A stretch of DNA of 64,000 nucleotides, taken from NCBI GenBank assembly GCA_040954595.2, contig CM082583.2:10429656-10493655 (forward strand). Direction: 5' to 3'. Of this stretch, positions 4,261-36,700 are shown in pieces; the stretch's first letter is position 1, and each line of letters opens with the position of its first letter. The stretch comes from Balanoglossus misakiensis (taxonomy: Eukaryota; Animalia; Hemichordata). A program made the translations under genes and the position numbers. The notes under the pieces are model-generated. The model did no database searches, was not told where the DNA came from, and was given only the letters and a program-made list of their open reading frames with translations.

Positions 4261-6797
4261 ATGGAACACAGAAGGCAGACATGTTTGCTGGTAGTTTTTA
4301 CTTTGGCTCTTGCACAAGGTGTGAATTGTTTGTCACCAATACACCCAGCAAGACATGTTGAGAAAATTCCAAACAGCTACATAGTCGTATTGAAGGTAAT
4401 GTCTTGCTCCAATCCTGCTACAATTTAGAAACATGAACATGGGTTGTGGTAATTCTTGGTTTGGTGAATGATTTAACTATTGTGGCTAAATTCGAGCAGT
4501 GACATTTTTTTCCAGGATGCTTACAATGAAGTTGACCTTGATGACATCATCAGGCAAGTTGAAACACACAGCAAGTTGTTCAAACTTGACATCAAAATAG
4601 TTGCCAAGTACACGAATGTGTTCCGTGGATTTTCATTGGAGGCAACTGACCAATCAGTCTTGATGGTAAGAAATCCAAGAACACACTCCAGTGATTTAAA
4701 TTTTAAGTTAGTTTATTGCTATCCAAGGACATATACATGTATATCTCAGGATAAATGCTCATTGATGAAATTTTCAAAGATAAATGGTCGAAGCACTGCC
4801 ACGCCACTGACAACTGCAGTCTAAACTACCCTGGTGGCCATCATTTTCCTTTATTAAAAGTCTCAAAATATCTGGATCTTACAAACTTTACAAATTCATG
4901 TTTTTTCTCTCCGTCCAAGATGCGTTCTTTGGAAGAGGTTGCCTACATACAAGAAGACAGTATAGTTACAGCTCAACAAACCAGCACTCCATGGAATCTT
5001 GACAGAATTGATCAACGAGATTTGCCTCTTGATGACGTTTATAATCCAGCTGGTAAAAAAACTTATGTCTCTTGTTTCCTTTCATATTTTGATTAGTGAA
5101 CAGCCAGTTTCATGACCCAACCTTGGCCCAGTGTTTTCATTGAAATGAATTAAAACCAAGGCCTTCCGTAATTGTACTTGAATTAACATAAACGTAGTAT
5201 GACGACTGTGTGCATCTTTCGCATTACAGGTGATGGTTCAGGTGTGAATGCATACATAGTTGATACTGGTATCCGGTACTCGCATATGGAGTTTACTGGA
5301 CGAGCCTCACCTTTTTACGACTATGAATCCGGTGGTGACGTGAGATTTCAAAATGCACATCTTTCTGCATTGAGAATGTTTATTCTTTGAATGGTGAAGA
5401 GGTGATGGGATATTGCAATTCAACGAATATCTGTTGTGTTTTGTTTAGTTGTACATTGTTAACTTCAACCAGAAGATGCTGGTTTCGTTTTTATAGGGTT
5501 CTGATTGCCATGGCCATGGTACCCATGGTGCTGGTGTGGTCGGTGGTGTACAATATGGTGTTGCTCAGAATGTACAGTTGTCCAGTGTTCGTGTTCTCAG
5601 CTGTGTTGGCAGTGGTTCAACATCCATGATAGTTGGAGGTTAGTTGATATTTAAACCACAGATCCCCTATACTGACATGGTAATTAAAAAAACACTGACA
5701 TGTACATAATTTTCAATGTGTTTTCTTCAATATAAGGTCTTGATTACATCGCTGCCAATGGTATCAAACCAGGTGTTGCATCACTGGCCATCGGTGGTGG
5801 GCCAAGCACTGCACTGGACGATGCCACTCGGGGAGTTATTGCAGCCGGTTTCCAGACAAGCATCTCAGCTGGGGGATCAGCTGCTGATGCTTGTAATTCC
5901 TCACCTGCACGGATCGAAGAGGTCAGTATTAACACAATGGCAGTTATAGAAGTCTATGAAACCAACCCCCTCTGACGATGGGAAAATGTACCTGAAACCT
6001 TTTCTGATGCTCTTTCTCTCTGCCAGTGTCAGCACTGGAGAAAATAGACCTTCAACATCATAATGAAGAATTATGATTTATACATCTGACACTGCAAACG
6101 ACAGAAATCAGCGTGTACTTAAAGCATTCATTGACATTTTGAGTGCCTTAGTGATAACGTGTCTGAAATTCTATGCCATTTTTTTCTCATATAATTGATT
6201 GGAAACAGGGAATAACCGTTGGTGGGACAACCTCACAAGACAGCATTGTTCCGTCATCGAACACTGGTCCGTGTGTTGCCGTTTTTGCTCCAGGTTCTGA
6301 CATCACAAGTGCATGGCACACAGGAGATTCAGATTATCGTACTTTATCTGGAACATCATCATCAGCTGCTCATTCAGCAGGTAGAGTTAAAGCTTTTCCC
6401 ACTACGTATTTCTCTGGCAAATTTATTCATGAAAAAAAATCGTTTCACAGATTTTGAAGTAAATAAACTTAAGCACAATGTATCAGATACTGCCATCTCA
6501 TTGGTTACGTACGTCATTCATATGCCTGGTGTGCACCTGTCAACAGAATGCTTACATGAAGAAACTGACCAATCAGAGTGCTGCTTCTAGTCAGTTGCAG
6601 ATGAAAACTTGAGTGACAGCCCAATTGAAACTTTGACACTAATCCTTTGTTTCTTCACAGGGGTGTGTGCCATCATACTGCAGGTCAATCCGAACTTGTC
6701 ATCCCAACAGGTGAAAGACCAACTCCTGGCTGATGCAACCGCTGGACGACTCAGCAACGTTCCACCAGATACTGCAAATTTGCTGATTTATACCTAG
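4261..6797 (+). CDS. Secreted subtilisin-like S8 serine protease, proteinase K/aqualysin/PCSK9-related, with I9 propeptide (exons 4261-4395, 4516-4665, 4920-5052, 5230-5339, 5497-5638, 5737-5921, 6209-6380, 6661-6797)
   Basis: Signal peptide, I9 prodomain ([10 protein letters not shown]...VAYIQED), mature start [11 protein letters not shown]. Catalytic Asp (IVDTG), His (HGHGTH) and Ser (LSGTS) are present, plus FAPG and the C-terminal NLLIY. All introns are GT-AG with consistent phase. Confidence 0.92.
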
Positions 6798-7038: not shown

Positions 7039-8730
7039 TTATCTACTACATATTTTAACAGTAACACAGCCATGTCTATACACAGCAACTGGCATATAAC
7101 CTACAGGAGACCACATGTCCTCAGTGGGGTTGTATAACTCTATAGTTTCCACGACTCCGTGGCTCTCCCTGTATCCTCCAAAAACATAAATCATTCCGTT
7201 GCAAACTGTCACACCCGGATCGGTCCGGCCAATAGTCAAGGAAGCTTTTGATTGCCAGGTGTCTGTCATTGGATCATAGCAGAACATGCTACCACTGCCA
7301 TCACAGATGACATAGATGAACCCCCTCAGAGTCACGGCACAGCATGCAGGCTGTCTGGCTGGCAGGGGACAGGGTGACAGAATGTTCCATTCGTCTTGCA
7401 GGGGATTATAGCATTGGGTGGGTGGTGGCTCTATCTCGGAGTAACCACCAATGACGTAAATTTTACCCAGGCAGGCTGTGGCGGCTGGATTTCTCACTGC
7501 ATATCGCATTGGAGTCACCTCCTTCCAAACGCAGGTGGTAGAGCGAGGGTCGTACCGCTCCACGCTGTTGATTGTGCTCCAATCGACATCCTTCCCTCCA
7601 AGAACGTAAACATACCCATCCAGTGCTACAGATCGGTGTGACCATCTCTCTTTCAGCAGAGGCGTGGCTAAACGATGCCATTTGCTTTCAGATGTCTCGT
7701 ACAGTAACGCACAACCTTTCCTAGAGGACACAAAAATGTCATTGCCCACGCCAACAGCGGTGGCCACTCTATCCCTGGAGATGGGGATGTCTTCCAGATC
7801 CTTCCATTTCTTGCTGCTTGGATTGTAACACTGCACCTGGGTTTCCTGCCCCATGCCAGCATCACCGCCCAAAATAACAATCACCTCCGAGTACACACGT
7901 GACTGGTACACTGGTGATGTCAAAGCCCTCCTTTCTGTAATGTCCATTGCTTTGTAAGCATGTGCTTCTTGCAGACACTGGCTGACAGTTTCAGAACCAA
8001 GAACAAATTCTTCCTCATCCACATGTTGTTTGAGGTATTCATCCCCTATAAATGCAAATCTGATGTGTTGGAGTAACTCTGGAAGAAACTGACTCCGTGA
8101 TGCAGTGTCTTGTTTCGTCCATGCAATGCACAACTCAAAGATATCTTCTTCCCTTTGTACCTGAACTTTAGGGGATGAAACAAAATATAACAGCTGGTCT
8201 TTAGAGAGGGATAATACTTCCTCTTCTTTGCTGACCTCTGAAAAATGCTCAAAAGCAAAACTTTCAGCTTTTCTGCTCAGAGACAAGCAGTTGTGGAGAT
8301 CAGCAAATTGTTGTATACCTAGACAGTTTGATGAATCAATTTGCCTCTCCATGTATTCTGCACAGGCCTTTTTAACCGGGAGTATCTGCAGCAGGTTTGC
8401 AGTCTCAAGTAAAGCCTGCACATTGGTGTCTGTGATGGGGATCTTGGCTGTGTAAATGAAGTTAATTATCTGCTCCAGGATGTCAGCATCAACGTGGCTC
8501 ATACACACTGTTGGTTTCGTTCTCTCCTGCAGGTCATGATAAAACATTGCCTTGAAGTAACTGCTGCATGATGCTAGCACAACTCGATGGCAGGCAAATT
8601 CCTTGCCATTGACACAGATTGTAACATCTGATAACTGTTTCTCGGACTTCAAGCTGTCCAAACCCTGTAGCAGTGTTTCAGGATGAGAACTTGCATGGAA
8701 GCTATACCCTCCATGTGTAGATGATGCCAT
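7039..8730 (-). CDS. BTB-BACK-Kelch (KLHL24-like) protein, single coding exon
   Basis: Uninterrupted ORF (open from 8772) with BTB (HRVVLASCSSYF), BACK and Kelch repeats (YVLGG..VERYDP..W). The likely start is the ATG at 8730, after a candidate 66-nt 5'UTR intron at 8742-8807. Confidence 0.92.
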   Translation of the reverse strand: MASSTHGGYSFHASSHPETLLQGLDSLKSEKQLSDVTICVNGKEFACHRVVLASCSSYFKAMFYHDLQERTKPTVCMSHVDADILEQIINFIYTAKIPITDTNVQALLETANLLQILPVKKACAEYMERQIDSSNCLGIQQFADLHNCLSLSRKAESFAFEHFSEVSKEEEVLSLSKDQLLYFVSSPKVQVQREEDIFELCIAWTKQDTASRSQFLPELLQHIRFAFIGDEYLKQHVDEEEFVLGSETVSQCLQEAHAYKAMDITERRALTSPVYQSRVYSEVIVILGGDAGMGQETQVQCYNPSSKKWKDLEDIPISRDRVATAVGVGNDIFVSSRKGCALLYETSESKWHRLATPLLKERWSHRSVALDGYVYVLGGKDVDWSTINSVERYDPRSTTCVWKEVTPMRYAVRNPAATACLGKIYVIGGYSEIEPPPTQCYNPLQDEWNILSPCPLPARQPACCAVTLRGFIYVICDGSGSMFCYDPMTDTWQSKASLTIGRTDPGVTVCNGMIYVFGGYRESHGVVETIELYNPTEDMWSPVGYMPVAVYRHGCVTVKICSR

Positions 8731-8877
8731 ATTTGATGACCCTATATTGAACATGTATGTAAAGTTATACATCAGCTGGGGCTAACTCAGCTTGACGGTG
8801 ACCTTACGGTGACCCTGCCTGCTGCCCTCCACGGCGATTAAATATATCGCAGTGCATGTTGGGATTGACCCCGTTAC

Positions 8878-13055: not shown

Positions 13056-15579
13056 ATGTCGCAGGTAGACACAGATACGATGACACTCACTCGGTTTGTG
13101 CTGACGGAACAGAAGAAAGTTCCCCAGGCCACGGGAGAACTGACGCAACTTCTGAATGCGATGTTGACGGCCATCAAAGCTGTGTCGACAGCAGTGAGAA
13201 AGGCAGGAATAGTCAAACTGTGAGTACCACGTATATGTCAGGCAGTGAGTATACTGTCGTAAGCTGTTTCCTGTATGAATAACCAAGTGGCAACGGATCC
13301 GATTGATTTAATTTCCAATATCACAAAGTCAGGCATGATTTTTGCAGTGGATGGGTTGATGGATTGGGCATTGTCGTTTGACCTCAACAGAGCCCTAAAA
13401 TGTCACCCCAGACTGATTACAAGTTCCAAGGTCCATTATTTCCCCGAATAAACAAACTATAATCCATTTCACAATAGACGGTAGAAAGCCAGCTTCATCG
13501 GTAAATACAAACTGTACAGTTAATTTCGACCAAATGAAAATTATTCATCCAATGTGTACATGTTGATGTTGTACACAGAAAAAAATTAAGGTAGCAATAT
13601 TGACATGATCATGGGATCAGAGTGACCTCGGTGTAATCTGGTTGTATTATAAATATTGATTTTCAAGTGATTCACCTGGAATATTTCAGGTTGCACGACA
13701 TACAACTTTCACTTATCAATGAATCCAGTGCCTGTGGCACTGTAGTGTATTTAGGTTCAAGGTCAAAAAAGGAGGTAATTAGGTCAATAGATTCCTATTG
13801 CTATAGGATTGATGATTTTTCTAGATACAGCTCCTACATCATTTGTATGCCATTTTAGAAGCAAAACAGGCAAATTGGTTATTTTTTAAATGTACTTAAT
13901 AAATCTGGGCATATTTTATTCGCATAGGCATGGCATGGCTGGTACCGGCGCCAATGTCCAAGGTGAAGATCAACACAAAATTGATGTCATCGCCAACAAG
14001 CTCTTCATCAACATGTTGAAGTCATCCTTCACAACATGCGTGTTGGTCTCAGAAGAAGACGAGAACATCATTGAGGTTGAGACTGACAGACAAGGCAAAT
14101 ATGTGGTCAGCTTTGATCCTCTTGATGGCTCTTCCAACATCGATTGTCTGGTGTCCATCGGTTCAATTTTTTCAATCATCAAAAGGGTGGGTATATTAGC
14201 AATTGGTTTCCATTATCTTGCAAGTGCCATGTTCAACACATACAAAATTACCATACAAAGGTTCACTGAGACAGCCACCGTTTTGTTTATGTAAAAATCA
14301 TTTTTGCAGACATCAGAAGGCACACCAGGACTGGCAGACGCATTGCAGCCTGGGAATCGGATTGTAGCAGCTGGTTATGCCTTATATGGCAGTGCTACCA
14401 TGGTGATGCTGTCAATAGGACAAGGTGTCAATGGATTCATGTTGGATCCTGTAAGTAATTAAGCTAGATTTTCATACACTTCCATGCCAATGTATCAGAA
14501 TATAAAGGAACCCAAACAACAGCAATTTCCTGTGCAAACAAAAAGCATAATTTCTGTAAAGTACTTGTTGATTTGTTGGCTTCCGTGAAAAGTTATCAAC
14601 AAAGGTGTATTCATATGCAAAGCCAGGAACATAATAGTAAAGTGGGGCATTGAGCGTATGTTATGTTTTATGGCAATGACACTCTTGATTATTTCCAGTC
14701 CATTGGGGAATTTTTGTTGACGGAGAGAAATGTTAAAATCAAGCCACGAGGCAAGTACTACAGCATCAACGAGGGTTATTCACAGTTCTGGGATGAAGCT
14801 ACCAAAGAATATGTCCATAATAAGAAATTTCCAAAGGTAAGGTGTGAATCGGTTGCTCATCAACATGGTATTTGGCCATTTTTTACCAGAAAATACGTTT
14901 TGTAGAGGTGTGTGTGATTAGCTTATAATTCATAAGTGAGAGCAGTGTGTCTTGGGAGGGGGGGGGGGGGGCATGAAGAGAGATCGTAGCCTTCTGAAAT
15001 TCTTGATTGCTTGGAGACATTTTGCAAGAGTTCTTGACTTTCACATTACAGGAAGGCAATCCCTACAATGCCCGTTACATTGGTTCAATGGTAGCTGACG
15101 TCCACAGAACCATTATGTATGGTGGCATCTTTGTCTATCCAGCACACAAGAAAGCTCCAAAGGGCAAGGTATGTTGTGGCTATTTGAAATTGTTAAAAGA
15201 AAAACACATTAAGGCAAGGCTCAGATATTGGCTGTCCAGGAATTGCAACTCTGTCCAAGAAAATATAATGGCTAAGCCACCCTCTTTTGTAGAATTAAAA
15301 CGTTTTCATCTAATTTTTCTTGACATGCATAGTGTGGCAAAGAGAAGTTAGCTGTTGTTGTTTACTTCTGTTCTTTTTTTTTTTTTTCAGCTGCGCTTGC
15401 TCTACGAGTGTAACCCCATGGCCTACTTAATAGAACAGGCCGGAGGTATTGCATCCACAGGAACGCAGCGCATATTGGATATTGTTCCTGAAAACATCCA
15501 CCAGCGTGTTCCCATCGTACTTGGATCCCCCGATGACGTCAACGAATACCTTGCTTGTGTTCAAAAACACCAAAGCTAG
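13056..15579 (+). CDS. FBP1: Fructose-1,6-bisphosphatase class 1 (exons 13056-13219, 13928-14186, 14310-14450, 14699-14836, 15052-15168, 15391-15579)
   Basis: Motifs [50 protein letters not shown] and [13 protein letters not shown]. All junctions are GT-AG. Confidence 0.96.
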
Positions 15580-16845: not shown

Positions 16846-18848
16846 CTACTGCTCCAGTACCTCTGGACATTTTTCCATCACATTGGTCAGGAGATTATTA
16901 ATGTATCTCCGCATGTTTTTGTTTTCTTCTGTGAGATCTGCAATTTATCAGGAAACATGAAAAAGAAGAAAGGGTAAATGGGATATCTTGATATTTCTTG
17001 TTACTGCAGTCAGAATCTTAGTGACAAATGACCCAGAGACATTCTTAATCGCTCACCTTGGACACGTCTTCGAAGTCGCTTTATTTCCTCCTGAAGATCG
17101 TCCACATTGTCATCCACTGGCACAGAAATAAAAGAAGCTTATAGTCAAGATAATTGGAGTAGATCTCTTGATATACGACCAGACCGACCAAAAACTTTCG
17201 GTAACAGTGCAAACATTATTACGAGTATAAAGGTTGGCAGCCATTATTGCTGATCTGTTGGAAAATCATCTCTGTTTGAAAGTATCAACAAGTAATAAGC
17301 GATGACTTTTACATCTTATTAATATTTTTTATGTTTCGCTTTATTAATATTTCTGCTATGTTCATAAATGATCTGACTAAGATGCTTACATTGTTCGCTT
17401 TTGGTGTCATCACTTTCCTTCTTATCACGGAAGAAAAAGCTGAAGATGCCTCGATTTCCATCTTCCTCTTCAGTTTCCTCTTCGGGAGAGGTCTTTCTAC
17501 TCAGTCTGTTTCCGTCGACGAATTCAAACTTTACGAGGGATATGCCCAGCCCTCCTGACCGGGTTTCGACGAGGACGGGCCCAGAGCAAACTTTCCACTC
17601 TTTCGTAGTGCAGCGAATTTTACCGGGAGAATCGTGTTCCAGGCTTGGCAAACAGTCAGATCCACATATCGTTAATTTAACAACGTCGTCTTTGCAGTCG
17701 CCCAAATTCCTTCCACGTATGGTAATCTTTGTTCCGCCTTCTACAGGCCCTTCTCTCGGCGATAAACCAGATATTTCGGGCCTGGTGTCGACGCTCTCAT
17801 CACTACCTGGTTCACTGATAGTACGTGGTCTGATGTCCTGGTGGCTCGACGTTTTCATCAACAATGATGGGTTCATATCGTCGGCGAATAACTTCGCTAT
17901 GTCAGAAACGGACCGCGAACCGCGACGGCTGAAGTTGGAGACAGGCACTTTTTTGGAAGGGAGAGGAGAACCCAGTAAGGTACCTCTCACCCACGTCAAC
18001 GTTCCTGACCAACTGCCTTTCAAAGCAGTCCGCTCACTTGTACCCGCGCTCTCCTCCTCCTGGCTTGCCTGGGTCGCCTTCCTTGATTTGGTCACCCAAC
18101 AGTCGAATACCAACTGCCCTGACGGATTAGGGCATTTCTTGCTCGACTGGAGATCCTCGACCCGTCGTTTTCCGAGGCATCTGTGCGGTATGGTTTCTAT
18201 TGGCAACGTTACTTCACCGAGAATGTCTTGTTTGTCTCGCACTGTGAATACCAGAGCACTGTCACTGCCTTTTATCGCACTAAATTGGAGAAAATATGCG
18301 AGGGTGATAGAGTGAGAACGTGAATGTACCAAAAGATTGGTAATCCATGGTGCTAGCGTACATTTTCTCAAAATTTTTCATCCATGCATTTTCCAGTTTC
18401 CGACATTTGGGTCTGAGCGCTTTCCACAACAATCGATCACTCAATCAAGCTTCTTTTAGTCGAGGTGGCATGTATTAATCCTACTTACAAAACCGATTCT
18501 TCGTTCCAGTCCGGGTTCGAGCTGTTAACCACAGTTGTTCGACATTTGTCATCTCCAATGCCAAATATGACCGATGCTTTACACCGATCTGTGACGAAAT
18601 GGAGTAAAAAAAATCCAGCAAGAGGTCAGAAACGCTAAATATTGAAAGTGGCATTACATAGACTAGTCAACCAGTTATTTGGTTATAAAGATTTTTAACT
18701 GTTAAGTCACAAGTTCCCGAAACCATTTGCTTTGCTGTACACCGAAACATGCATGTTTACATTGTACATGAAAGTGTTTAAAAATCGAATTAAAAAAGAC
18801 GAAAAAACCTACCCGTCTTTTTTCCTTGTAAATTTCTGGCCCCATAGA
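16846..18848 (-). CDS. Rab11-FIP class I-like protein: C2 domain + internal IPT/TIG domain + coiled coil + FIP Rab-binding domain (exons 18848-18813, 18588-18489, 18279-17390, 17116-17057, 16937-16846; first coding exon unresolved upstream)
   Basis: C2: YGARNLQGKK/DRCKASVIFGIGDDKCRTTVV..NPDWNEESVF/..LVFTVRD..ILGEVTLP. IPT at 17517-17783. C-terminus DLQEEIKRLRRRVQDLTEENKNMRRYINNLLTNVMEKCPEVLEQ* matches the FIP-RBD pattern YIDxLLxxVMExxPxIL. Intron phases are consistent throughout. Confidence 0.8.
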
Positions 18849-21160
18849 CTAGTAGTGGAAGTAATAAAATAAATATATAATAAATAGCCTGCCCTATGGC
18901 AATATAATAGGTTTGACATGAAATGGGAACTTAATTCATAAAACATGACTATGCATGGACAAAATTCTGACCATGGCCATTCGTTCCTAAGTGTACTTTG
19001 CGCCATCGTCAACTGTATGGGAAGAGCATCCTTATTCGCTTGCGTATTATACGGAGTTCATTTGTACTGAACTATTTTACGATAGAACTCCGCAGTCCAC
19101 TGCAGTTAGTTCATGTATTAATATAACAAACCTATTACTTTGACTTCTGTTGGTTCCATGTCACAAGTTCATTATGTTACCCAGTGTCTTGTTCAAGTAC
19201 CAGACAGCTAGCTACCAATTTGTTCGACCCTAGTTTGTCACATCAAGGTTTCTATGGCAATAAAAGAACAAGACGAGACGGTGAAATTCTTACCACCAAC
19301 CCGATCAAACTTATAAGCTATATGTCTTGCAACATATCTGACGTGGCTGGGTTTGGCTGAGTATCGTATCACCAGTGGCCTCAATGGAGATTTCTTTTTT
19401 TAATAGTTCTGGGTTTGAGTGAAAAGGGGGATTATGCATTATGTATGCGCCTCACAGAGTACGCACCCACTGGCAATTGCTAATGCATGGTATCACCTAC
19501 AGTCTCTCCACGCACTGTGTATCATCTTACATTAAATTGTGATATAGTATAATCATGTCACAGTAAAATGACGCAGACAACACAATGTTAGACAGTGCTT
19601 GAATGCATAAAAAATAATTTTTAACAATACAACCTCTTTTAGGCCTCACGGAAACACCATTCTATCGACATATCTGTATGGACACGACACTGTTAGAGTC
19701 GAACCAAATACGACATATTTTCATGGCACGTACTTCTTAAAACCCTATTCAGGTTGTGTCGCCATAGTAACGCACATGTGGTGATGGTCTACACCTGCTA
19801 TGTGCACAGATGTCCAACGACGTCGACGCATCCTTCGACATATACTTTAATAATCGCAGTATTTACCACTGGGTGGCGCACTTTATAAAAAAATGGAATT
19901 CATGCCGATCAGATCTGGGTTTCAACATTTCGTAAATTGAAGCGCGGTACTGATTAATATTTCGCGTAATTTGACCTGCCTAAGAGTTTTTCCCATGCCT
20001 TGTCAACAGCGCGTTCGTCGATGAAAAACCCGGCGAGATTTTTAATAGATTTCTTCTCCAGCTGTATTCCTTTCTTTATGTTTGGCATCACACAACCGAT
20101 GGGCCTAGGGCCTATTTCAATGCTTCTTTATCATGAAAACTTACCTGCACTGGCCAGCTTGTATAAGTGAATGGTTTGTAAAAGGTTTTAAATTGAAAAA
20201 ATCTAGAAATTTCGTATGTCTGGCTTCAGGAGTTTGCTGTCCTTCACTTCAGTATTCTATGAACATTGTGGACGCTCCACTGTCTCCAGGCAAAGTTCCA
20301 CGCGCTACGCGTAACTATAGAAACGCTTGCTCGAGGTCAGATTGGACCATTATTACCACGTGCGTGTGGGAATACATACATGAAAGTAATCAACCTTGTA
20401 TGAATATCCCTTTCAACTTTCTTCTCGTCTCAGTGTAAAACACCTTATGTTTTAACGATGAAATTGCACCTAGTCGCTATTTACTATACATGTAATCAAC
20501 AGGGCTTGCGATGATGATGTGATGTGACGCGACAGATTTGACGGTTTGCTCTGTTTATCACTCGTGGACAACAACATCCACGTGAACACTGATTGATTGT
20601 GTACACGTGCCAATGCAGAGGAACCGGTCTGTTGAGGGCGCCTGTGTTGCATGCAACTTTTAGACCAATCAGAAATGACTTAACAAGGCTCAGGACACGA
20701 AGGGTCATTTCAGGTCGAAGAAACAAAATTATAACTGCCAGTTACCATAGGAAAAAAAGCGGTGAGTTTTATCAGTAGGTTGCATCTCTCATAATAATAA
20801 TAAGGTCGCATTGAAGCAGCCAGAAAGCCAAGCTTTCATTTGCATATCTACAATGATTTTTATATAATATAAGAGTAAGGATACGCAATGAAACGCTGAA
20901 CGCCTTTGCGTACAGTAAACATCACAGGTGGTAAAAATGAGTGAAAATGGCCATTATAAATGCCACCGACATCGAGACTACCTGTGACCATAGCTGCAGT
21001 GCCGTAGCTCGAGGTTTTGTCTAGTATTTGATGTCGGTTTTGCCCTAAACCTGGCAAAACTGAGCTACGAAGGCAGCTACTGACTCGACTGTGTCCTTGA
21101 AGCAAGTGAGAGTCCGTTGACCTTTATTGTTTTAATCAGATTGTACTCGTTTCGGGGACA

Positions 21161-23350: not shown

Positions 23351-26300
23351 CTAAGTAATGACATTACCTGAAATGAAGAAAAGAAAATGTTAAATATATC
23401 TGAGAACTCGATAACTATACTATTCACATTTACTTTTACAAGTGAGAATCAAGAAGCTACAACAGAATTCAATAAATACTGTTATATGTTCTGGATGATT
23501 AGTGTTTTGAAATGTTATGGAATCATTAGTCAGGAACTCGACGTGTCATATTCACTTTTGTGGTATTAGTATCAAAATGTATACATTACCAAGTGTTCTG
23601 GTGTGATTTCCCCTTATCCCTTTCTTAAGGTGGTGAACCTAAGGAGAGGCAATGATATACATGAAACAGCCACAGTCATATTATCAGTATCATCTTAATT
23701 ACTGTAAGTATACACATGCAATTGTAGCTGATAAAATTTGTGGACATTTATGATTGTAGAACTTTCGTTTTCAACCTCAAGAAAGCTGTTTTCTCTCCAT
23801 CACCAAAGGTAGTGATATGTTCACCTGCAAAACATGCAGTCTTTTGTCACATTTTTCTGTCTGACTCTGGAGGCACTGTGCATGATCCCTGTTTCTAAAC
23901 GCCACGAACTTGTCACTTTCGCATGCAGAAATGTATACCTTTGGATTAAGTGCCCCGAGTGCAAAATGGTTTGTCACTTTGAGAGTGGCGATTAGTGAAA
24001 AATTACTGACCTGTATCAGTGACAGTGGCACGGAATCCTCGGGCGGTTAAGGTTGCATCCGAGGAAAGGGTTAACCAGACCGAGGGACCTGTTGAAGTGA
24101 AATCTTGGGGTAGAAGGACACCGTTGTGTTCCCATATCACGCTTGTTGCTTGACTTGGATCCTGCCCATTACCCGCCGAAAAGTAATCGCAGCAGTCCTG
24201 CAGAACGAAATCTTGAAACTCCACAAGCAGAGTGTTGCCACTTTGACTATCTATTGTCCACCAACATGCAAGATCATTGGGGTAGTCTTCGGGATACCTT
24301 GGTGAAGTGACTGTAATCTTCCCGCCAGTTGGCACAGTAAGGAACTGGGAACATGCTAGGAGTGAAAGATAATTATTTACGTGTCATTAGTAAGCAATGT
24401 CATTGGGATTAGTCTGTGAACAAAATTGGGGTGTGAAAAACAGTTTTTCATTTGTCATATTTTTAGGTGCAATTATCCAGCTATTGCCAACAATAAACCA
24501 GGTGGACCAGGAAAATTCGCCCTCAGGCCAACATAAAAAAGAATGCGTTTCCCGTAACATGCTCTTCGGAAAAAAGGTAAGGCAGGAATTCTTTATTTTG
24601 GATTAAAAAAGCAATACATTTTCCTAATTCTGCATAGTTGAGGTGAGCAAGTAAAATGATGAGGGATTTCTCCATTGTTAATCAACGACCGGCAAATCGT
24701 GCAATATCTTATGACAGAGTATGGATCAACAGCAGAATGAAGCTGACGAAATAGCAAGAGTAAAGTTGCATATAAAAATTAAAAGAAAACTTACAAAATT
24801 CAGAAACGGTTAGAGAAAAACCTCGGCGGGTAACCAAACTGTTGTCAGTGCTGAATGATATCCAGGCAGCACTTCCAGTTGTAACGTAATCGTCTGGTGT
24901 AGTCGTACCAGAATGCCTCCATACAAGACTAGACGTCTCGCTAGGAGTCTCTCCTTCTCCCATAGAGTAATCTGATCCACTACCCGTATTGAAATCATTG
25001 TAGGTGAGAGACAGTAATGTGTTGTTCAGGTTACGCACAGTCCATCGACAGGCTTGGTTTGGTGGGTACGGGTTTGGATAGTTTGTGGATTCTATGAGAA
25101 CGCTTTCACCGATGCTTACAGTCAGGTCGTAAACACAGTCAGCTGTGAAAAAAGTGCAACGCTCACATGAATAATCTGTCGAATATCACTGATAAAGCAA
25201 GCTGGAGTTATTGTACTGATTAATTTTCCTACATTGGAAGTTGTCATTTTCGTTGAGACGTATTACCATTTTCAAATTGTTAAAAGTAAGAATAGTAATA
25301 ATTGTCATCATATGGAAGATGTTAGGGCAGGAAGCTCATGAGTTGTACACCTACCTGCACATGCACTGACATAATCTTCACAACACTCATTCAAATAGAA
25401 GCAATCAGTATAACAGCTACACTGGAAATCATTGTTGTAGGAATTGCATTCTTCGCGACAAGTGGAACCTGTAATGAGAATGTACCATCAGACAATATTT
25501 GAACGGATGAGAATGTTATCAAAATGTGACGATTTGAAGTGGGCAGTTCTGGGTCAGTTGTGGGCATATATCTTGCTATGTCATCAAAGTTTCCATTGAA
25601 AGCAACGTGGTGCACAGTGTTTGATAAAGTCGAGGCTTGTAATTGTTAATACTCGCCCAAGTTTTCCACAACTGCATGAAATCCCTTGTCTGTGTTGCTG
25701 GAGTCACTTGAGAACCTCATCCACACAGACGTTTCATCAGACAAATAGCTTGGTGGCAGTGTTGCTCCCGAGTGGGCCCAGATTTCCACGCTACTGTTAA
25801 CGCTAGGTTGGTCGCCGTGTCCGGCAAAGTAATTATCGTAGTTCAGCTCCGTTGCAAAATCCCTGTAATCAACGAACAGCTTTCCTGTCCCGTTCTGACG
25901 GATTATGTATTCGCATCTGGCATCATTCGGATAATTGGAGGGATAATTTGGTGACATCACATCAACTGATGCTGATGTAGCAACATAGATAGTTTCGGTG
26001 CAGTTACCTATACAAGAAGATGCAGTATGTGTCATTTTTGTAGCTTAATTAACCTTTATATAAGCATTTCTATATCAACAAGAAAAACATTTCAGCAGAT
26101 GTTCTGAGAAAGCCTGGATGTAAATAAATGTCTCACATTTGTCCACACACTGTAATAATAAAACCTTTCTGTGATTCTTTATTTTCTGAACATGCTAAAA
26201 ATAAGAACTGATACAAATTGTCAATACCACCATATCATGATTGTGTGTTCTTACCTCCACAATGTTCAAAGTAGTCATAGCAGCAGTTGTTGTCATAGAT

Positions 26301-29012
26301 ACAATTAGGGAAACAGCTACACATGTGCACGGAGTCATAAGTATCACACAGGTTTGCGCAAGTACCCTTACCTATAAAAGAGAAACACAGCAATAAAGAT
26401 GCGTTAAAGTTACATGTGGTTAGCTGTGTGAGGGCTGTATTGTTACCCCAAATGTGGTGGAAGAAAAGTTACTGTTTGTCACAGATGTTAAAATACAAAG
26501 CACAGAATGGAAATGAAAATTTTAAAAATCTTACGATACATGTCTTCTACTTCAATGTGGAAACCCTTTTCTGTCACTGAGCTATCGGAGACAAATCGCA
26601 TCCACACAGTAGAGTCTGTTGAGGTGAAATCTTCCGGAGCAGTCAAGCCTGAATATTGCCAGATGACACTTGTAGCCTGCGATGGCTGGTCTCCATTGCC
26701 GGCGAAGTAAAAATCTTTACCAAGCTGGGTGTAGAATTCCGTGAATCTGACTTGCATGATGGATTTCCTCTCTGTTGTGATTATCCACTCACACTGCGCA
26801 TCATCAGGATAGTTCGAGGGGTAATTTGGCGAGGTGATGGTCACTTGACCAGACTCTGGTATTGTTATTGTCTCATAGCAACCTCCTATAGATGGACAAG
26901 AAATAGATATTGGAAGGACATCATTGCTGTTGGATTCAACCCTGTGTTTTCTCCTCTTTAAGGTTACCTGGCTTTTCCTGACACAATAAATCAAGTTATA
27001 TGTTCTGATGACCTTTAATTTTTCAGTTTTGTGTGTCACTTTACCAAAAACAGGAATACCCAAATGAATTTAACATCTTAGGTATAGGATTGTATTATTT
27101 AACAACAAATGAACCTTGTTTTTGTCATTGCACATAAATATTTTACCTTACAAGAAATCTGCATTAGTGATTCATGTTAAGCCTAAATAATTAAACATAC
27201 CAGTGTGTAATATAAAATTAAAAATTCAATTATAGTGTGCAACTTTCAACTGCTTTTAAAAAAGTCTTAAACAGAAACATAGGTCATGGCTTCATTTTCC
27301 CGGCTTACAGGTTTTGACAGCATATTTCCAAGAATGTGAGATATCAAAACAAAATTCGCCATGGCCATGTTTTCGTCGAATAGGCAAGCGATGACATTTG
27401 AATCAATTCACGACCAAATAGCAGGCTGGGAAAGAAGGTAGCCTTGAAATGAAATTTTGCGTCACTGATGTAGCTGTTCCAACTTCCTGCTTTACGGATA
27501 ACTTCAGGCCGTACTTTGATGACATTGAAATATTCAGTTATTTTCAGATGACTGAATTTGTGCAAGAGTGTTTGACCAAGAACATAAATATTTTAGGTTA
27601 CAAAAAATCTCCTTTCGCGATTCCTGTTGCGTCTAAATTGTCTAAATTATTAAATGAAGAGACATGAATTGAATGTTTACCTGCACAATTTTCGAAGTAG
27701 TCTGAACAGCAGTTGTCGTTTAATACACACGATTGGTCACAACTGCAATTCTGTTCTGGGTTATCAAAACCGCACAGTCCAGCACAAGTTGTTATTCCTG
27801 AAATATCAAATACACATTTACAGTGAAAGAAATTTGGTGTGTCCGTCTTTCACTATGGTTATAATATTTGGGCCCATCATTAATTTTCAATAAGAACAGA
27901 TATTAATGACAATTTGCTAAAGATTGAATGTCAGCTTTACCTACCAGTATCATATAGCCTGTTGCGGAAACCAAGGTCAGCGATAATGCTATCAGATGTG
28001 AAGGTAATCCAGACAGACTGGCTTGAAGATGTGAAGTCTGGCGGAAGTGAAGGGCCAGAATGTTGCCAAATAACACTGGAATTCTGGCTGGGGTCTTTAC
28101 CATTACCAGCTGAGTAGAAATCGTAGCCAGTTTCTGTAGCGAACTCCCAATGTTCCACTAAGATCTTTGTGTTTCTGTCTGTGGAAATGGTCCACTCACA
28201 GTTGGCATCCATCGGGTAGTTTGCGGGGTAGTTAGGCGACATGACATCAACGTAACCACCGGCCGGTATGTTTAATATTTCGCCGCATGGAGCTGCAAGA
28301 GAACGCCAGTGTGAAAAGTCTGATCGCTGAACATCAACAATAAAATCTATTGCTTTATTATGAAGGTTGTTAACACATCAAGATATGAGTCTGTATGTTG
28401 CAGAAACCTCTGATGGTCACCTTGTTTTGTATATCTGACAAATCTGACCTAACTACTATGATAGAATGCACCTCATGTGGACCACTGATTAACCCAACAT
28501 GAATGGTTATAATAATCTACCAATGAATATTTCTTACCTACTGTTGTTTGACCTGCAAAATATGAAAAATGATTTGTCAGTATCTGCATTTAATTAAACA
28601 CTTTTTAAAATGGTAAATGGCCTAAAAACCTGATGTGGCCATGTTCAAAGTTATAATTGCTATCACAACACATATGAAACAAAGACATATTGGGCATGTT
28701 CAGTTCATGAATCAAGGTTGGAGAGAGAGAGAGAACAAGAGAGAGGGGAGGAGAGACAGACGGAGAGGCAGATAGAGAGAGAGAGAGAGGCAGAGATCAA
28801 GAGACGGAGAGAATGAGATAGAGAGATGGAGGGGAAGGGTATAGACAGATAGAGGTAGAGGAGACAGAGATAGAGAAGAGAGACAGACAGAATTAATGAG
28901 AGAGAGGGAAGGGACACACACACACACAGATTAATTTTGGGCGCAACTCACCAAACACCTGAAGAATGCACGAAGATTGAACAAAAAAGAAAAGGGCGAA
29001 GAGAGACTTCAT
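23351..29012 (-). CDS. Secreted CUB/somatomedin-B repeat protein, paralogue B: SP-(CUB-SMB)x3-CUB-CUB
   Basis: Signal exon 29012-28952 (MKSLFALFFFVQSSCILQVF), microexon 28552-28538, CUB 28292-27945, SMB 27797-27681, CUB 26885-26535, SMB 26371-26255, CUB 26007-25657, SMB 25468-25355, CUB 25142-24795, CUB 24355-24011, candidate terminal exon 23367-23351 (GNVIT*), AATAAA near 23175. CUB motifs SPNYP..YP..CxW and SMB 8-Cys pattern CxxxC..CSC..C....CCxDY...C. Confidence 0.85.
28719..28929. repeat. Imperfect (GA)n polypurine microsatellite followed by (CA)n
   Basis: Directly visible GA/AG-rich tract in intron 1 of paralogue B. Confidence 0.9.
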
Positions 29013-30701
29013 CTTGCAGACTGTTATTCGCCAATGCAAGCTGGAATGATTGGCCTCGGGATTCACACGAGTTTTATACCACGAGCACTGATAGTATTTG
29101 CACCTAAATACGTATCATTTTTTCAAAATCTCGCCAGATGGGAGCTTTGTGTAAAGTTCCCAAAGATAACCTAGCTACCGTATATATGCAGGCATGAGTT
29201 TTATCATATTTGATACACGAAAGATTGGTCTTCCATTATGACGTTCCAGTATCATCAGAGTCACATTTCGTTAACGTGATGACTTGTATACACGAATAAA
29301 TTCAGCTGGCAACAATTTGGGGTTGTATTCAATTTGGGGACAGATGGCAATGCAATGATCATGCTTCAAGCTTGAGCCTAACGGAAATGATGACATACTA
29401 TAAATCTTTGATGGGCCGTGACGATCATATTCGCAGAGATACCCCATCTTGGCGCCAAACATCAAGCATTAGCTTTTTCTATGGAACCCATCATCGTACC
29501 CATGGAATTCCACACTCCTATCTATTGTAGCGCATTTCTTTAAAGAACCACAAACCAAGGATTTAGTTTTTGTGTGAGATGCAGGGAAATACGAGAACGC
29601 GAAAATTAATGGTCACGTAACAGTTGCCTCTTTTGATATCATGAAAATAACCTGTCGCGAAAATTTCCTGTTTTACAGTAAGTAATTCTATGAGCGACGA
29701 AAGCCACCAATGACAGGAAATTACTACTTATTGAAAAATTCTGAAATTGGAACCCATGTTTACCAGTGCTACATTGATCCACAGGCTTCCGATTTGAAAG
29801 CGAACTGCTATTTAATGCTAAATGGGCTTGATTTACCGGTACAAGGTTTTAAGACATGGCGCCAGTTTAGTGCGTCCTTGCTGCAGGTAACACTCTTTGG
29901 TCGACTGCTTAGGGTACTTATAATCAGGTTGGATCAGCCGATCTCTAATACCATGTTTTATGGCGATATAGTCGTCATTCCCTGTGCATGTTCCACAGTT
30001 GTGGTACAGGCTTGCCAACCTACACTCCAATGTGCTGATGGTTTTGATGTTTTTAAATCTCCTTTAAAAAAAACCATGGTCTGGTGTGTGTAAAAAAATC
30101 ACAAAAACAAATAATGGAATGACAATTCTGGAGAATGTGACCATATGTTAGGAAGAAGTTTGTGTCATTACTTGTTCATTGCTACAGATAAGACATGACA
30201 CCCTTATTATTCATTTTTAGTTGCTTTTATTCAATATAGGCAATGGTAACATTCAGTATATGCCTGTACGTGGCATAACTTCAATCTGTTGAATTATAAA
30301 CCAAGTCTTCAATGCTGTGAAGTTTCAGGTTACCACAGATGTTTATACTGAAATTCATCCTGAAAGAGATCAATGCATCATGGGATATTAAAGGATTCAG
30401 TCAAGTGAAGTGCAAACGCGAGTTTGTGCAGATAACGAACCCAATGCATCTCTCAGAAAAAATGATCACTGACAGCATTGATAACATTTGGCTTCAGATA
30501 GCAACTCCATCGTATTTTGACTCTCAGTCAGTAATTGATATGCAATCAGAGCCATGATTTTCCTAGAAGGAGATACAACATTAAACATTCCAAGGTGTTT
30601 AACAATATACACTCTCGTTGATAATCACAAACACAACACTTCAGTTAATAATAATCAATACCTGTACCTGCATTGATCGAGACTCCCATTTCTTCAAAGA
30701 T

Positions 30702-33700
30702 TTACGGTTTGCCTATGAGAAACAAACACAAGCATAAGTCACTAACCTTTTACATTATTTTGGTTATCTTTTCTCTTCATAGACTATTTAATGTAGTTCT
30801 ACTCACTGTACGGCATATTCTTTTACACTTTTTTCAGGCAAAGAAAAGCAGAATTCCTGAAAGAATATATATATATCTACGGTACTGACCACTATCTGTT
30901 AGAATAACACGGAAACCTCGGTCGGTATTCACAGAATTTGATGTCATGTTCATCCAGATAGATGCGCCGGTTGACGTGAAGTCTGATGGCAGAATAGTGC
31001 CGCTGTGCTGCCATATGACACTACTTCCTTGGCTGGGCACACCTCCATCTCCCGCTGAATAAAAATCACAGCATTCTTCAGTGTTGAAATCTTGGTACTG
31101 AGCAAGAATGGTGTTGCCACTTTCGCTGTTGACATACCACGCACAATCCATGTCATTGGGATAGTTCTCCGGGTAATTTGGCGAGCTGACCGTCACCTTC
31201 CCTCCAGTGGGTACAGTGATTGTCTTCTCACATGCTGCAAAGAGGAAGAGTCATAGTCGTCAGTGATGATAATCATGGAAGAAACGGTCAGAATCATCCA
31301 GTTCTCACATGTATGTACCGGTAAGTAGTGTTACATATATTTTAATGATGTATCAGTTATACATATTTTGTGTAAACTCAAATGCATTCGAAATACACCA
31401 AAACCATTAGATGGGTTTTGGTCAGTTGAATATGTTTTATAATGCTTTGTTTTTTAAATTGCCATGGAAATGCTAAACTAGAAAACATACATGTACCATC
31501 TAATTTGTTGTTTAACCCATTCACCCCCAGTTCCTTCTTTAGAAGTCCAACCTTACCATAGAAAACAATGGGTTTGAACTGAACCATGGTGGTGAAAAGG
31601 GTAAGTCTATTATATTTATTGGGCTTCCATATCTTGAAGGTAGAGTACAACGTCTTATGCATACTCTCTTTCTACGGGTACCGGTTTAGAGTCCCTATAG
31701 AGTGTTGCATTCTGCGCTCTACTCTATCTTCACGGTAATTTGTGTGATAACTAGGATTTTCTTGTAAATAGAAAACAATGGGTTTGAACTGAACCATGGT
31801 GGTGAAAAGGGTAAGTCTATGATATTTATTGGGCTTCCATATCTTGAAGGTGGAGTACAACGTCTTATGCTACTCTCATTCTCAGCGGACCGGTTTAGAG
31901 TCCCTATACATGTAGAGTCCGGCATTCTGCGCTCTACTCTATCTTCACGGTAATTTGTGTGATAACTAGGATTTTCTTGTAAATTTATTTGTTAACGGTA
32001 ATATGATTGCAATAACAACAACAGTAGCAGCAATTAGAGCAACAACAACAATTACCCCTTCTATAATATTACCTTAGTAACAACATAAATAAGAACAAAA
32101 GTACTTTACTTAGTTCCCCGTGGAAAGTTCTTTGAATGTGATGGTGATTTGAGTTTTTAATTAATTAAACCTTGCCAACCCGGGACGCGAAGTGGGAAGA
32201 GCTATAAAACTTTTCAATTTAAAACAATATACCTATAAGGGAATTTATGACTTAAATGCTTTTAGCGAGAAGAAATTGAAAGTTTGGCTACAGAAGCCTT
32301 GAAATGTATTTACTGTGTCAGCTTTGTAATCTTACCAAAATCAGTAACAGTCAGACTGAAACCAGGCCTCACAACGCTGCTGTCTGAAGTAAACGTGACC
32401 CACACTGTCTGGCCGTCTGAAAGGAAATCGTCTGGCGCTACACTTCCGTATTGTTGCCAGACAACGCTGGTGCTTTGGCTTGGCTCTGCACCATTGCCTG
32501 CAGAGAAGTAGTCGCAGCAGGGCTCCAATTCAAAAGCCTGGAATGTGACAGATAGCAAGGTGCCATTCGGAGTGTTCACGGTCCACCTGCAGGCTGCCTC
32601 ATTAGGATACGGACTTGGATAGTTGGGCGATGTGATAACAACGCTGCCACCACTACCAACAGTGAGATCCTCCACGCATCCTGCGGCTGGGATAATGAGG
32701 ACAAACGAAAACGATGAGAACCTGTTGAAGATGTTCGTACCGATACATGCATGTACTTGTATGTATGTACCGTATATGTGTGTATACATACCGTATGTAT
32801 TATACATGTACCGGTATGTAATATGTACCGGTATATTCATGTGTACAAATACAGTACATACTCGGATGAACGTGTTCATGGTAAAGGTACGATAAACGTG
32901 GAGCAAGAATACAGACAATTCCATTGGAATATACTGAATGACAACTTACTTCCACAAACTTCCGCATAGTCAGGACAGCAGTTGCCCATATAACCACAGT
33001 CGTTGTAACAGCTACAGAAGTATGCACTATTGAAGTTGTTACACATACCAATGCAAGATGCACCTAAAAACAACGAAAACATTTGTAAATTAAGGTGCAT
33101 TTTATTGCTAGCACCAAATGACAGCTTCTGAGCTCTAAAGTTACACGTTCGTTAGACTGGAACCTCAACGTATTTATTTACTGTGCGAATAGCAAAACAA
33201 GTCACAAGCTTACCTAGACCTGACACAGATGATTGGAAACCACGATCTGTCGTAGAGCTATCTGTCGTAAACCTCATCCAGACAGCGCTGGAGCTAGTAG
33301 CAAAGGTTGTTGGTAAAGAGGTTCCTGAATGAGCCCAGATTTCTGTCGTCGAGTTAACATTCGGCTGGTCTCCATGACCAGCAAAGAAGAAATCGTAGTT
33401 CAGTTCAGTCGCAAAATCTGTGAAGTCAACACTCATCTGGGTATCTGTTCCGTTGTTCCTAATTATATACTCACAGCGGGCATCGTTAGGATAGTTGGAA
33501 GGGTAATTTGGTGACGTCACCACGACACTACCACTGGTATCGACATAAAGAGTTTCGGTACAGTTACCTGAAATCAAGTTTGAAATGGTTTACAATTATA
33601 GAAAATTATAACACATTATTAACTGCTCAAATAAAAAAAATGATACACAAATAAATCTTGTACATGAGTAAACAATATTGCAAACATATTGGAGCTGAGC

Positions 33701-36700
33701 CATAGTCTCTATTGCTGATATCAGTCTTGTAAAACAGATTGTGTTCTAAACCCAACCTCCAGAAAGGAATTCTTCTATCGATAAATTCCTACCTCCACAA
33801 ATTTCAAAATAGTCTGGACAACAGTTGGAGTCAAAAACACAATCCCGTTGACAGCTGCATTGATGCAGGTTATCGTATGTATCACAGATATCAACACATG
33901 AACCTTTACCTGCAAAACAATAAGAGGAACATTTAACACATTCAATTGGCAAAGATGTGTATCTGCCAAATAAGCAATTGTTTGAGAAATTTGAGCTGGA
34001 CATTTACATGTAGGGCTGATAGCAGACATGGTTGACTTATTCAGGGTTTACTTAACGGAAAAACTTCTGATGTTGAGATTCAGTGTGAATTAAATGTTTT
34101 CGTAGGATACAGGGATGTATTGGGAAATTTATATTGTTATTTAACTTGTTTTAAATTATTGGATTTGAGACAAAGGACATCAGCTTACCAAACATGTCCT
34201 CCACGTCGACACTGAAACCCTTCTCCGTAGCTGCACCATCAGAAACAAATCGCATCCACACGGTGGAATCGCTCGACATAAAATCTGCTGGAGCGGTTAA
34301 GCCTGAATATTGCCAGATGACACTTGTTTCCTCGGATGGTTGGTCTCCATTTCCGGCAAAGTAGAAGTCCTTCCCAAACTGTGTGTAGAAATCTGTAAAG
34401 CGAACATGCATTGCAGACAGTCTCTCTGTGGAGATCATCCACTGACACTGAGCGTTGTCGGGGTAGTTAGAGGGGTAATTGGGTGATGTGATGGTCACTG
34501 TACCACCTTCAGGAATTGTGACGACTTCATTGCAATCACCTGGCAAGGAAAAGAAAAGAACACTGTTGGCAAGTGAGCACTTTGAAGGTAGAACAGAAGT
34601 AGATTTCTGTTGTTAACATTGCCCGATTTTGTGAATAAGTGGTGGACGATGTCTGTTCAGTAAATTGGTTGTGCGCCCTCATGGTCATTTTTAATCCATG
34701 TTACGTCATTGTCTGTGACAATAATGTCGTCAACAGTTGAAGTTTCGAATATCCTGTCGAATATGAATTTAATGAACATAATGATCTTGAGAAGTTAACA
34801 CTCAAATCTTATTACCTGCGCACATTTCGAAGTAATCACTGCAGCAGTTATTGTTTATGACGCAGTCCTGATTACAGCTGCATGCTTGAGCTGGATTATC
34901 AAAACCGCATAAATTGTCACAGCTGCTCAAACCTGTAAATGACAGATAGTGGGAAGTAAAAAACCAATTTATTTTGGTCGGTAGGTTCAGGGAAGGTGTC
35001 TTATTTCTGTGGACAGGCAGATGAAACTTCAGAATATTTCTGTTTTGAAAATCTATTAAAGCATTCATGCGCCAGGCCATGTTAATTGTACTCACCGGTG
35101 TCATGGATTCTGGTTGAAAATCCTCTGTAGCTGATGATATGGTCAGATGTGAAAGTAATCCAGACAGTCACACCAAATGACATAAAATCTGGGGGTAGAT
35201 TGGGACCAGAGTGTCGCCAGATCACACTGGAGTTTTGATCTGGAGTCTTCCCATTGCCGGCAGAGTAGAAATCATAGTCTGTTTCTGTGATGAAATCGAA
35301 GTGTTCCAGGTGGAGAATGGTGTTGTTTTCCGTTGAGATGATCCACTCACAGTCAGAATTCATTGGATATTCATTTGGGTAGTTTGGTGAGGTAACATCG
35401 ATGTATCCGCCCTTTGGTATCACCAGAGTTTCAGTACAATTAACAGCTGTTGAAAGATCAGACAGTCTTGAGTGAACGGTCGATCAAGTACTATGATTTT
35501 CTTGCTAGAAAACAGCAGCAGTGTGTTAATGCATCCAAGAACGCAATCAGTATCCACCCATGTAGTCAGTTGAAAATTCATCCGGTCACTGACCCATACC
35601 CTTACTCACTTATCCATCTTCTGACCTAATCCAACACACTGATCCATCAATCCATCTATCCACCCACCCATCCATCCATCAATCCATCTAATGACACGAC
35701 CACAATATGTCAAGTGGAGCTCTTAAAACCGCATGCAGTTATTAGTAACAGGAAAAGCATCATAAGCTCTGAGTAACAAATATGATTTTGGGAAGAAGAT
35801 CTTCCATTCCTCTTGTAAATTAGACAGTCTTACGTGGAGCACTAGTTGTCGCAGGTGCTGAAAGAGAGGAAAATACTACCTTTAGGCCTAATTGCTGACA
35901 ATTTTTCTGACAAAGACTGAAAAAATGTGAAAATATGTAGCCGAGGTAGACTATTGGCAATATCTATATTATTTTCTTATAAGTTTGCAGGTACCGGTAC
36001 ATAATCCATGCCATTTGAGGTCAAATGCAACATATGATTTTCCACCCATTGCGAGATCTCGCGAGACTTGGATATCACCATAGCAACGGGTTGCTAGCCA
36101 AGTACATGTAATACAGTCCAGACATGTCTGACTGCAACTCTTTCATGACTGATCACTTGTCTGAGAAGTGATATGGACAAGATGATTGGAAGGCACTAAA
36201 AATTCTACTCATAATTAACGCGCGATAAAACTGTCATCGAAGTCCGCAAACCAATATCTTGTTTCCTCAGGATCCACTAAATGGATGATAAGGACGCAAT
36301 TGAGACAGGAACCTACCACCTGTTTGTCCTGCAATAAAGGAAATTTGAAACAATTTAATGTCTTTGCCATGTGCAAAATAAAATGCTCAGGCTAGATTCA
36401 TTTGGTATGTTTGCTTTTTTTCTATTGAAACATTCAGAAACCATTAGTGATCCAGTCGGTCAGTACAAATGTTAGCATTTATAGTTGTTTTTGCCATCTG
36501 ACAATAATTGAAACCTCCACAATACAGTAACTTTGATAAATATAAATATTACTTATTAGTAACTGTTTATTAACGTTTGATCAGATTAATGCTGCCAGCT
36601 GGTACGATAAGTGTCAGTGGAGGGGAACTCCCAGACGGAGTTCAATCCCTTGGACTGCTATGACTCCTATGTTTCTAGTGAATAAAACATTCATGATTTA

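Follow-up and report, generated by a model that had tools for sequence, protein, structure and literature searches.

The putative adaptor gene and its neighbours

The window, by which we mean the whole 64,000-nucleotide stretch of Balanoglossus misakiensis DNA analysed here (contig CM082583.2, positions 10,429,656 to 10,493,655), carries on its minus strand a gene of six coding exons (19159-16846) that encodes a 401-aa protein with a C2 domain, an IPT domain and a C-terminal FIP-type RBD, and in which the sole stop codon is the terminal one. Its five introns are short (119-283 nt), and all are GT-AG and phase-consistent. The parts of this gene, referred to below as the adaptor gene, are as follows (window coordinates).

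19132..19159, minus strand: coding exon 1, with the ATG and the first C2 strand; 9/9 residues equal the N-terminus of the Ptychodera homologue; phase-1 GT donor
18813..18848, minus strand: coding exon 2, 36 nt long, covering strand 1 and the basic loop 1 of the C2; AG/GT ends, phase 1-1; tblastn 80% to P0001
18489..18588, minus strand: coding exon 3, C2; Pfam C2 E = 0.0019 on the fragment; 85% to P0001
17390..18279, minus strand: coding exon 4, remaining C2, linker, IPT and acidic linker; 68% to P0001 across 98% of the exon; AG/GT ends
17898..17927, minus strand: candidate phosphosite, a conserved basic/Ser motif at aa 173-182 of the C2-IPT linker, which is predicted to be disordered; pattern in 20/38 members
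17514..17783, minus strand: Sec5/EXOC2-type IPT domain (aa 221-310), with Ser225 at the position of Sec5 Thr11 and Arg243 at that of Sec5 Arg27; Pfam TIG E = 1e-12; best PDB match Sec5
17057..17116, minus strand: coding exon 5, coiled coil; AG/GT ends, phase 1-1; helix in the homologue model
16846..16937, minus strand: coding exon 6, FIP-type RBD and stop, with Tyr383, Ile384 and Asn385; Pfam RBD-FIP E = 6.2e-08

A preliminary description of this locus had proposed one spliced reading frame in a range beginning at 18848; the predicted splicing is supported (in-phase GT-AG introns, homologues), and the start has moved, exon 1 at 19159 having been missed. The ATG exon at 19159 scores 44, against 20 for the runner-up, and matches the first nine residues of the Ptychodera protein. 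An alternative first exon near 19357, C2-strand-like, was discarded, since the one at 19159 matches the Ptychodera start exactly. The joined 401-aa model is 70% identical (280/400) to XP_070542885 of Ptychodera flava and 59% identical (231/393) to XP_077989319 of Glandiceps talaboti, both of them RefSeq entries that have no protein name and contain C2 and TIG domains; RBD-FIP lies above the Pfam cut-off in the former and is weak in the latter (E = 0.0032). Because these hemichordate homologues align across the joined model, the predicted six-exon splice chain is supported by homology. Fusion of two adjacent genes by the gene model is very improbable, given that the five short GT-AG introns are all in phase and that the same architecture is predicted within one protein in each of 18 named species, including EukProt entries and ORFs on contigs of 1.5-3.2 kb. 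The co-occurrence of C2, IPT and terminal FIP-RBD in one protein, proposed in the preliminary description, is borne out by Pfam, which finds all three on the exons or on the homologue.

Several other genes lie in the window. A fructose-1,6-bisphosphatase gene (13890-15579, plus strand; Pfam FBPase and FBPase_C) is convergent with the adaptor gene and ends about 1.3 kb from its stop, and a BTB-BACK-Kelch gene (7039-8781, minus strand) consists of a single ORF of about 560 aa. From about 24000 to 35500 (minus strand) runs a long exon array, apparently tandemly duplicated, that codes for CUB domains with somatomedin B domains in between, and at 48864-50078 (minus strand) a single ORF encodes a rhodopsin-family GPCR (7tm_1, E = 7.5e-65). 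Two ORF fragments at 4477-5096 (plus strand), for which no Pfam match was found on the fragments, resemble what we take to be the beginning of a subtilase of the proteinase K type.

A family with a constant domain order

The IPT domain had at first been read as an insertion into a single FIP-like protein. This reading has to be given up: the architecture belongs to a widespread family, and 31 of the best 150 profile matches have all three domains by family profiles (which were built from 24 members, so that the count is partly circular). A further 37 of the same 150 have C2 and IPT without the RBD and are mostly partial gene calls. The profile search against 1.84 billion representative sequences returned 70 matches at E <1e-30. 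With Pfam alone (E up to 0.01), all three domains were found in 13 of the 60 proteins scanned, the scan set being 60 of 104 further matches of up to 1000 aa. The order C2, one to three IPT domains, terminal RBD is the same in all 35 family proteins checked. An ESM Atlas cluster named 'hypothetical protein' has a similar content (53 members; C2 in 100%, TIG in 98%, RBD-FIP in 13%).

The search across metazoa that had been proposed thus yielded the architecture, in constant order, in animals and also in unicellular opisthokonts. Named members come from 18 species: two hemichordates, a crinoid, two molluscs, an annelid, a nemertean, a nematomorph, four cnidarians, three sponges and the three unicellular organisms Pigoraptor (a filasterean), Amoebidium (an ichthyosporean) and Lithocolla (a nucleariid), whose RBD scores 25 bits on the family profile without a Pfam match. 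No vertebrate, insect or nematode protein is among the named members, a list that does not in itself establish loss; the vertebrate matches of the IPT profile are EXOC2 or fragments. A search with a 21-sequence IPT profile gave 989 matches, and a word search with a single IPT for longer proteins gave nothing among 30 candidates.

In a tree of the C2 and RBD segments the hemichordates, the cnidarians and the molluscs each group, the unicellular members fall outside and the sponges scatter; the tree roughly tracks species groups, which fits vertical descent. On these sequences, C2-IPT-RBD is an old opisthokont family.

Two members, P0024 (Owenia) and P0181 (Paramuricea), bear the UniRef name 'Exocyst complex component 2' and yet are without the Sec5 domain, and automatic misannotation as EXOC2 may hide the family; other members are labelled 'uncharacterized' in databases. 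One 266-aa member, P0048, close to P0022, has C2 and RBD without an IPT domain and may be an IPT-skipping isoform.

The C2 domain, the linkers and the FIP-type tail

On single window exons, Pfam recovers a C2 fragment of 32 aa that lies below the cut-off; in the Ptychodera homologue the C2 domain has a Pfam E-value of 9e-12 and is modelled as eight-stranded with pLDDT >90. The homologue's model as a whole consists of three confident modules between low-confidence linkers, with pLDDT <50 in the C2-IPT linker and one helix of 43 residues (355-397). In the adaptor C2, loop 1 is basic and loop 3 is short, features that in C2 domains go with calcium-independent lipid binding, and by analogy this domain probably binds lipids without calcium. 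For comparison, the C2 domains of class I FIPs are described as binding PIP3 and phosphatidic acid (PMC9282008, excerpt). In the Atlas, Munc13 and intersectin C2 clusters rank first by features for the adaptor C2; FIP5 ranks second by structure and lies outside the top feature clusters.

The basic/Ser motif of the C2-IPT linker recurs in 20 of the 38 full-architecture proteins, against 0.39 expected from shuffles, for a pattern that was drawn from the window copy. To judge by this conservation it is likely a phosphosite, and it presumably resembles one in FIP2.

The RBD of the window copy scores 32.8 bits on Pfam RBD-FIP (PF09457; cut-off 23.3), and its PDB matches, each weak alone (E 0.15-0.23), are all four to FIP1 or FIP2. 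Across the family the Tyr is conserved in 37/38 members, the position of the Ile is hydrophobic, likewise in 37/38, and Pro and Leu are kept in 38/38; the domain ends in a Cys-Pro-x-x-Leu variant (Cys in 27/38). The window copy keeps the Tyr and Ile of the Tyr-Ile-Asp core, and Ile384 lies at the position of an isoleucine that FIP2 is described as needing in order to bind Rab11 (10.1101/2021.01.25.428185, in part). The Asp is replaced by Asn385, as it is in Ptychodera, at a position that is acidic (Asp/Glu) in 35/38 members. This substitution, together with the use of FIP4 mutants spanning the Tyr-Met-Asp triplet as Rab11-binding mutants (PMC9282008, excerpt) and the binding of FIP tails also to Rab14, Rab25 or Rab42 (10.1101/2021.01.25.428185, in part), would fit a tail that in this lineage only dimerises or binds another Rab, such as Rab14, leaving a dimeric Ral effector with no link to Rab11. 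We regard that as distinctly unlikely, the hydrophobic core of the RBD being intact and its score above the Pfam cut-off.

Kinship of the IPT domain

The IPT domain of the window scores above the Pfam TIG cut-off, and its best PDB match is Sec5 (61 bits, against 28 bits for a plexin A4 domain). The family IPT profile matches Sec5 over its whole length with 97 bits, and the best plexin A1 domain with 36 bits; plexin and MET matches are weaker and do not reach into the last third of the domain. The predicted fold superimposes on 1UAD_C (Sec5) with Z 17.1 and rmsd 1.5 over 90 aligned residues, compared with Z 13.6 for plexin A1, 13.4 for an NMR entry of Sec5 and 13.0 for MET. Identity to 12 EXOC2 IPTs is 39-51%, and 13 of 13 EXOC2 IPTs score highest on the family profile. 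Family IPTs score nearly the same on an EXOC2 profile (83.3) and on a profile of protist multi-IPT repeats (81.6), which had been chosen as matches of the family profile, with 16/34 best on EXOC2. The adaptor IPT is kin to the EXOC2 IPT, nearer to it than to those of plexin and MET, as had been supposed. Plexin and MET IPTs have the same fold (Z 13.0-13.6) and similar first two strands, in an extracellular receptor context.

The protein as a whole is another matter. The IPT of EXOC2 is N-terminal, whereas that of the adaptor is internal, and PF15469, the Sec5 helical domain, has no match in the window exons or the homologues; on its domain content the adaptor is not EXOC2. A two-residue insertion before strand 2, found in adaptor and plexin IPTs, is absent in 12/12 EXOC2.

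Several proteins, P0126 (Fabomonas), P0063 (Amoeboaphelidium), P0029, P0035, P0053, P0098, P0131 and P0137, have several IPT repeats and a Sec5-like C-terminal hairpin motif, without the Ral-type signature described below. Such multi-IPT repeat proteins are a possible reservoir of the domain's origin.

A Ral-type signature and a modelled complex with Ral

Arg27 of Sec5 is, we assume, a Ral contact residue. Thr11 of Sec5 contacts RalA Tyr36, and the mutation T11A weakens binding (PMC12407918, excerpt). Aligned with 1UAD chain C, the window IPT has Ser225 at Thr11 and Arg243 at Arg27, so that both residues are as the preliminary description gave them. The pair alone is not diagnostic, since plexin A4 has equivalents of both. 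Adding Gly12, which the plexin A4 and A1 domains that match best do not have, separates the Sec5 type from plexins. The resulting signature (Thr/Ser11-Gly12-x-Ser14-Pro15 with Arg27) is present in 19/38 family proteins, among them the window copy and every member from unicellular organisms (three) and from sponges (three); Thr/Ser11, Gly12 and Arg27 occur together in 0/29 other eukaryotic IPT repeats. The full signature is missing in the other 19/38, to which Nematostella, the crinoid and the two named molluscs belong; among single IPT copies in the family, 28/47 have Arg27. The mollusc clade (P0007, P0019 and the related P0013-P0017, P0022 and P0038) keeps C2, IPT and RBD with Arg27 and Gly12 replaced, and constitutes a natural loss-of-signature control.

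We modelled the window IPT with a Ral G-domain, GTP and Mg in three runs and with three controls, using as the Ral partner a stand-in from an animal-like metagenome contig (L019). The complex folded with a score of 0.88, against 0.00 for the best of the three controls; at least 97% of contacts were common to the runs, and the partner's pLDDT was 94. In the model, IPT strand 1 pairs with Ral switch I, Ser225 and Arg243 are in the interface, and the Ral surface is that used by Sec5. The complex-score mark is reached by 51/78 solved versus 2/108 mismatched pairs (39/65 versus 2/126 for eukaryotes), and close cousins of true partners reach it 10 of 12 times. Since a similar complex, Sec5-RalA, has already been solved, the score shows likeness rather than binding and may echo a memory of the solved structure. 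The folding experiment that had been suggested thus came out on the expected surface, with the qualification that it may reproduce 1UAD. The predicted interface positions are scarcely nearer to the EXOC2 consensus (0.48) than the remaining positions (0.43).

The half of the family that is without the signature and yet keeps the IPT fold suggests another possibility, namely a Rab11 effector with an IPT that has a partner different from Ral (some other Ras-family GTPase, a cargo or a coat) or is only a spacer, the likeness of this IPT to Sec5 reflecting shared ancestry. The variation in IPT copy number (1-3) and the occurrence of related repeats alongside EGF, fibronectin or PARP domains in large proteins of protists point the same way. 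We consider this somewhat unlikely, since the signature is kept in every unicellular and sponge member while absent from other IPT repeats, and since the Ral complex model passed its controls.

Trees of the IPT domain and the direction of transfer

In an IPT tree of 60 rows (from 78, after removal of 12 long branches and 6 second copies or near-duplicates), EXOC2 IPTs form a clade of their own (100/97), sister to the IPT of the Pigoraptor family member (98/86), and the window IPT groups with its hemichordate relatives. In a quick tree of all 78 rows EXOC2 is nested in the family at another place, and a long Gordionus branch is drawn into EXOC2. Recent capture of the IPT from a deuterostome EXOC2 was rejected (AU p = 0.00075). 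Not rejected were a sister relation of hemichordate IPTs to EXOC2 as a whole (p = 0.27), monophyly of the family alone (p = 0.199) and monophyly of the family with EXOC2 (p = 0.493). The trees comprise 92 columns, with animal EXOC2 rows only and no plexin or MET rows, and on this basis EXOC2 may have taken its IPT from the family. Of the phylogeny that had been proposed, the comparison with EXOC2 was made by trees, with recent capture from deuterostome EXOC2 rejected and EXOC2 nested in the family, and that with plexin and MET by sequence and fold. Yeast Sec5 matches echinoderm EXOC2 in the helical part only.

The ancestor of Holomycota had Ral (PMC13393502, in part), so that the range of the partner agrees with that of the family. 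A possible, though doubtful, history is that C2-IPT-RBD is a third class of Rab11-FIP and the original opisthokont Ral effector: it would have linked Rab11 vesicles with Ral before the origin of animals, given its IPT to Sec5/EXOC2 and so placed the exocyst under Ral control, and later been lost in vertebrates, flies and worms, which would be why it went unseen.

Proposed mechanism and relation to known adaptors

Class I Rab11-FIPs (FIP1/RCP, FIP2 and FIP5/Rip11) are defined as a class in PMC9282008. The adaptor resembles them in its N-terminal C2 domain, low-complexity middle and terminal coiled coil with FIP-RBD, and they form the second Atlas cluster for the whole adaptor (score 0.75, a lead only). 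It differs in being shorter, in the one to three folded IPT domains between C2 and RBD across its family, in the Cys-Pro-x-x-Leu end of the RBD and, for the window copy, in the Asn in place of the RBD Asp. By analogy, the adaptor would work in the manner of a class I Rab11-FIP to which an exocyst-type module has been added, this module sharing with the Sec5/EXOC2 IPT (PDB 1UAD, 1HK6) the best fold match, the strand-1 and Arg27 positions and the modelled Ral surface. A precedent for two GTPases exists in the class II Rab11-FIPs (FIP3/FIP4, arfophilins), which bind Rab11 and Arf6 (PMC9282008, excerpt); they differ in having EF-hands and no C2, and in that their second GTPase is Arf6 rather than Ral. 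We found no description of the C2-IPT-RBD architecture in the main texts of the open-licence literature, though comparative-genomics supplements may list it; the preliminary description, too, was aware of none. C2-IPT-RBD is an uncharacterised ancient family.

We propose that the protein is a dimeric adaptor of the Rab11-FIP type, predicted to hold Rab11-GTP through its tail, Ral-GTP through its IPT and anionic membrane through its C2, a reading on which we are evenly divided. As in class I FIPs, the C-terminal helix would dimerise, so that the two RBDs could take two Rab11 molecules on recycling vesicles; the first IPT strand is predicted to pair with Ral switch I, on the surface that Sec5 uses; and the C2 domain, with its basic loop 1 and short loop 3, would bind lipids, probably calcium-free. 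Given flexible linkers of about 100 and about 45 residues, the dimer could act as a coincidence detector or as a short tether between Rab11 vesicles and membranes with active Ral, and it would compete with the exocyst (Sec5) for each Ral molecule.

That competition is also the core of a different proposal, in which the protein is mainly a Ral buffer or decoy that sits on Rab11 endosomes and keeps Ral-GTP from Sec5/Exo84, without membrane tethering. The modelled contact would fall on Ral switch I, where Sec5 Thr11 meets RalA Tyr36 (PMC12407918, excerpt), and members with two or three IPTs would bind several Ral molecules; such a role fails to explain why C2 and RBD have stayed joined to the IPT across opisthokonts, and we think it quite unlikely as the main function. 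The preliminary description had posed bridge and decoy as alternatives, and the two are not exclusive.

In directing recycling and secretory vesicles, Rab11 and Ral both act through the exocyst, each on different subunits of it (PMC3877765, in part). If a single protein does read both, as the bridging adaptor that we propose would, it would represent a new type of Ral effector and connect Rab11 with Ral directly. According to a 2025 preprint (PMC12407918, excerpt), the coupling of Ral to the exocyst is a metazoan innovation; the Sec5-type IPT that a FIP of unicellular opisthokonts carries would offer a concrete source for the Ral-exocyst module and make its origin testable.
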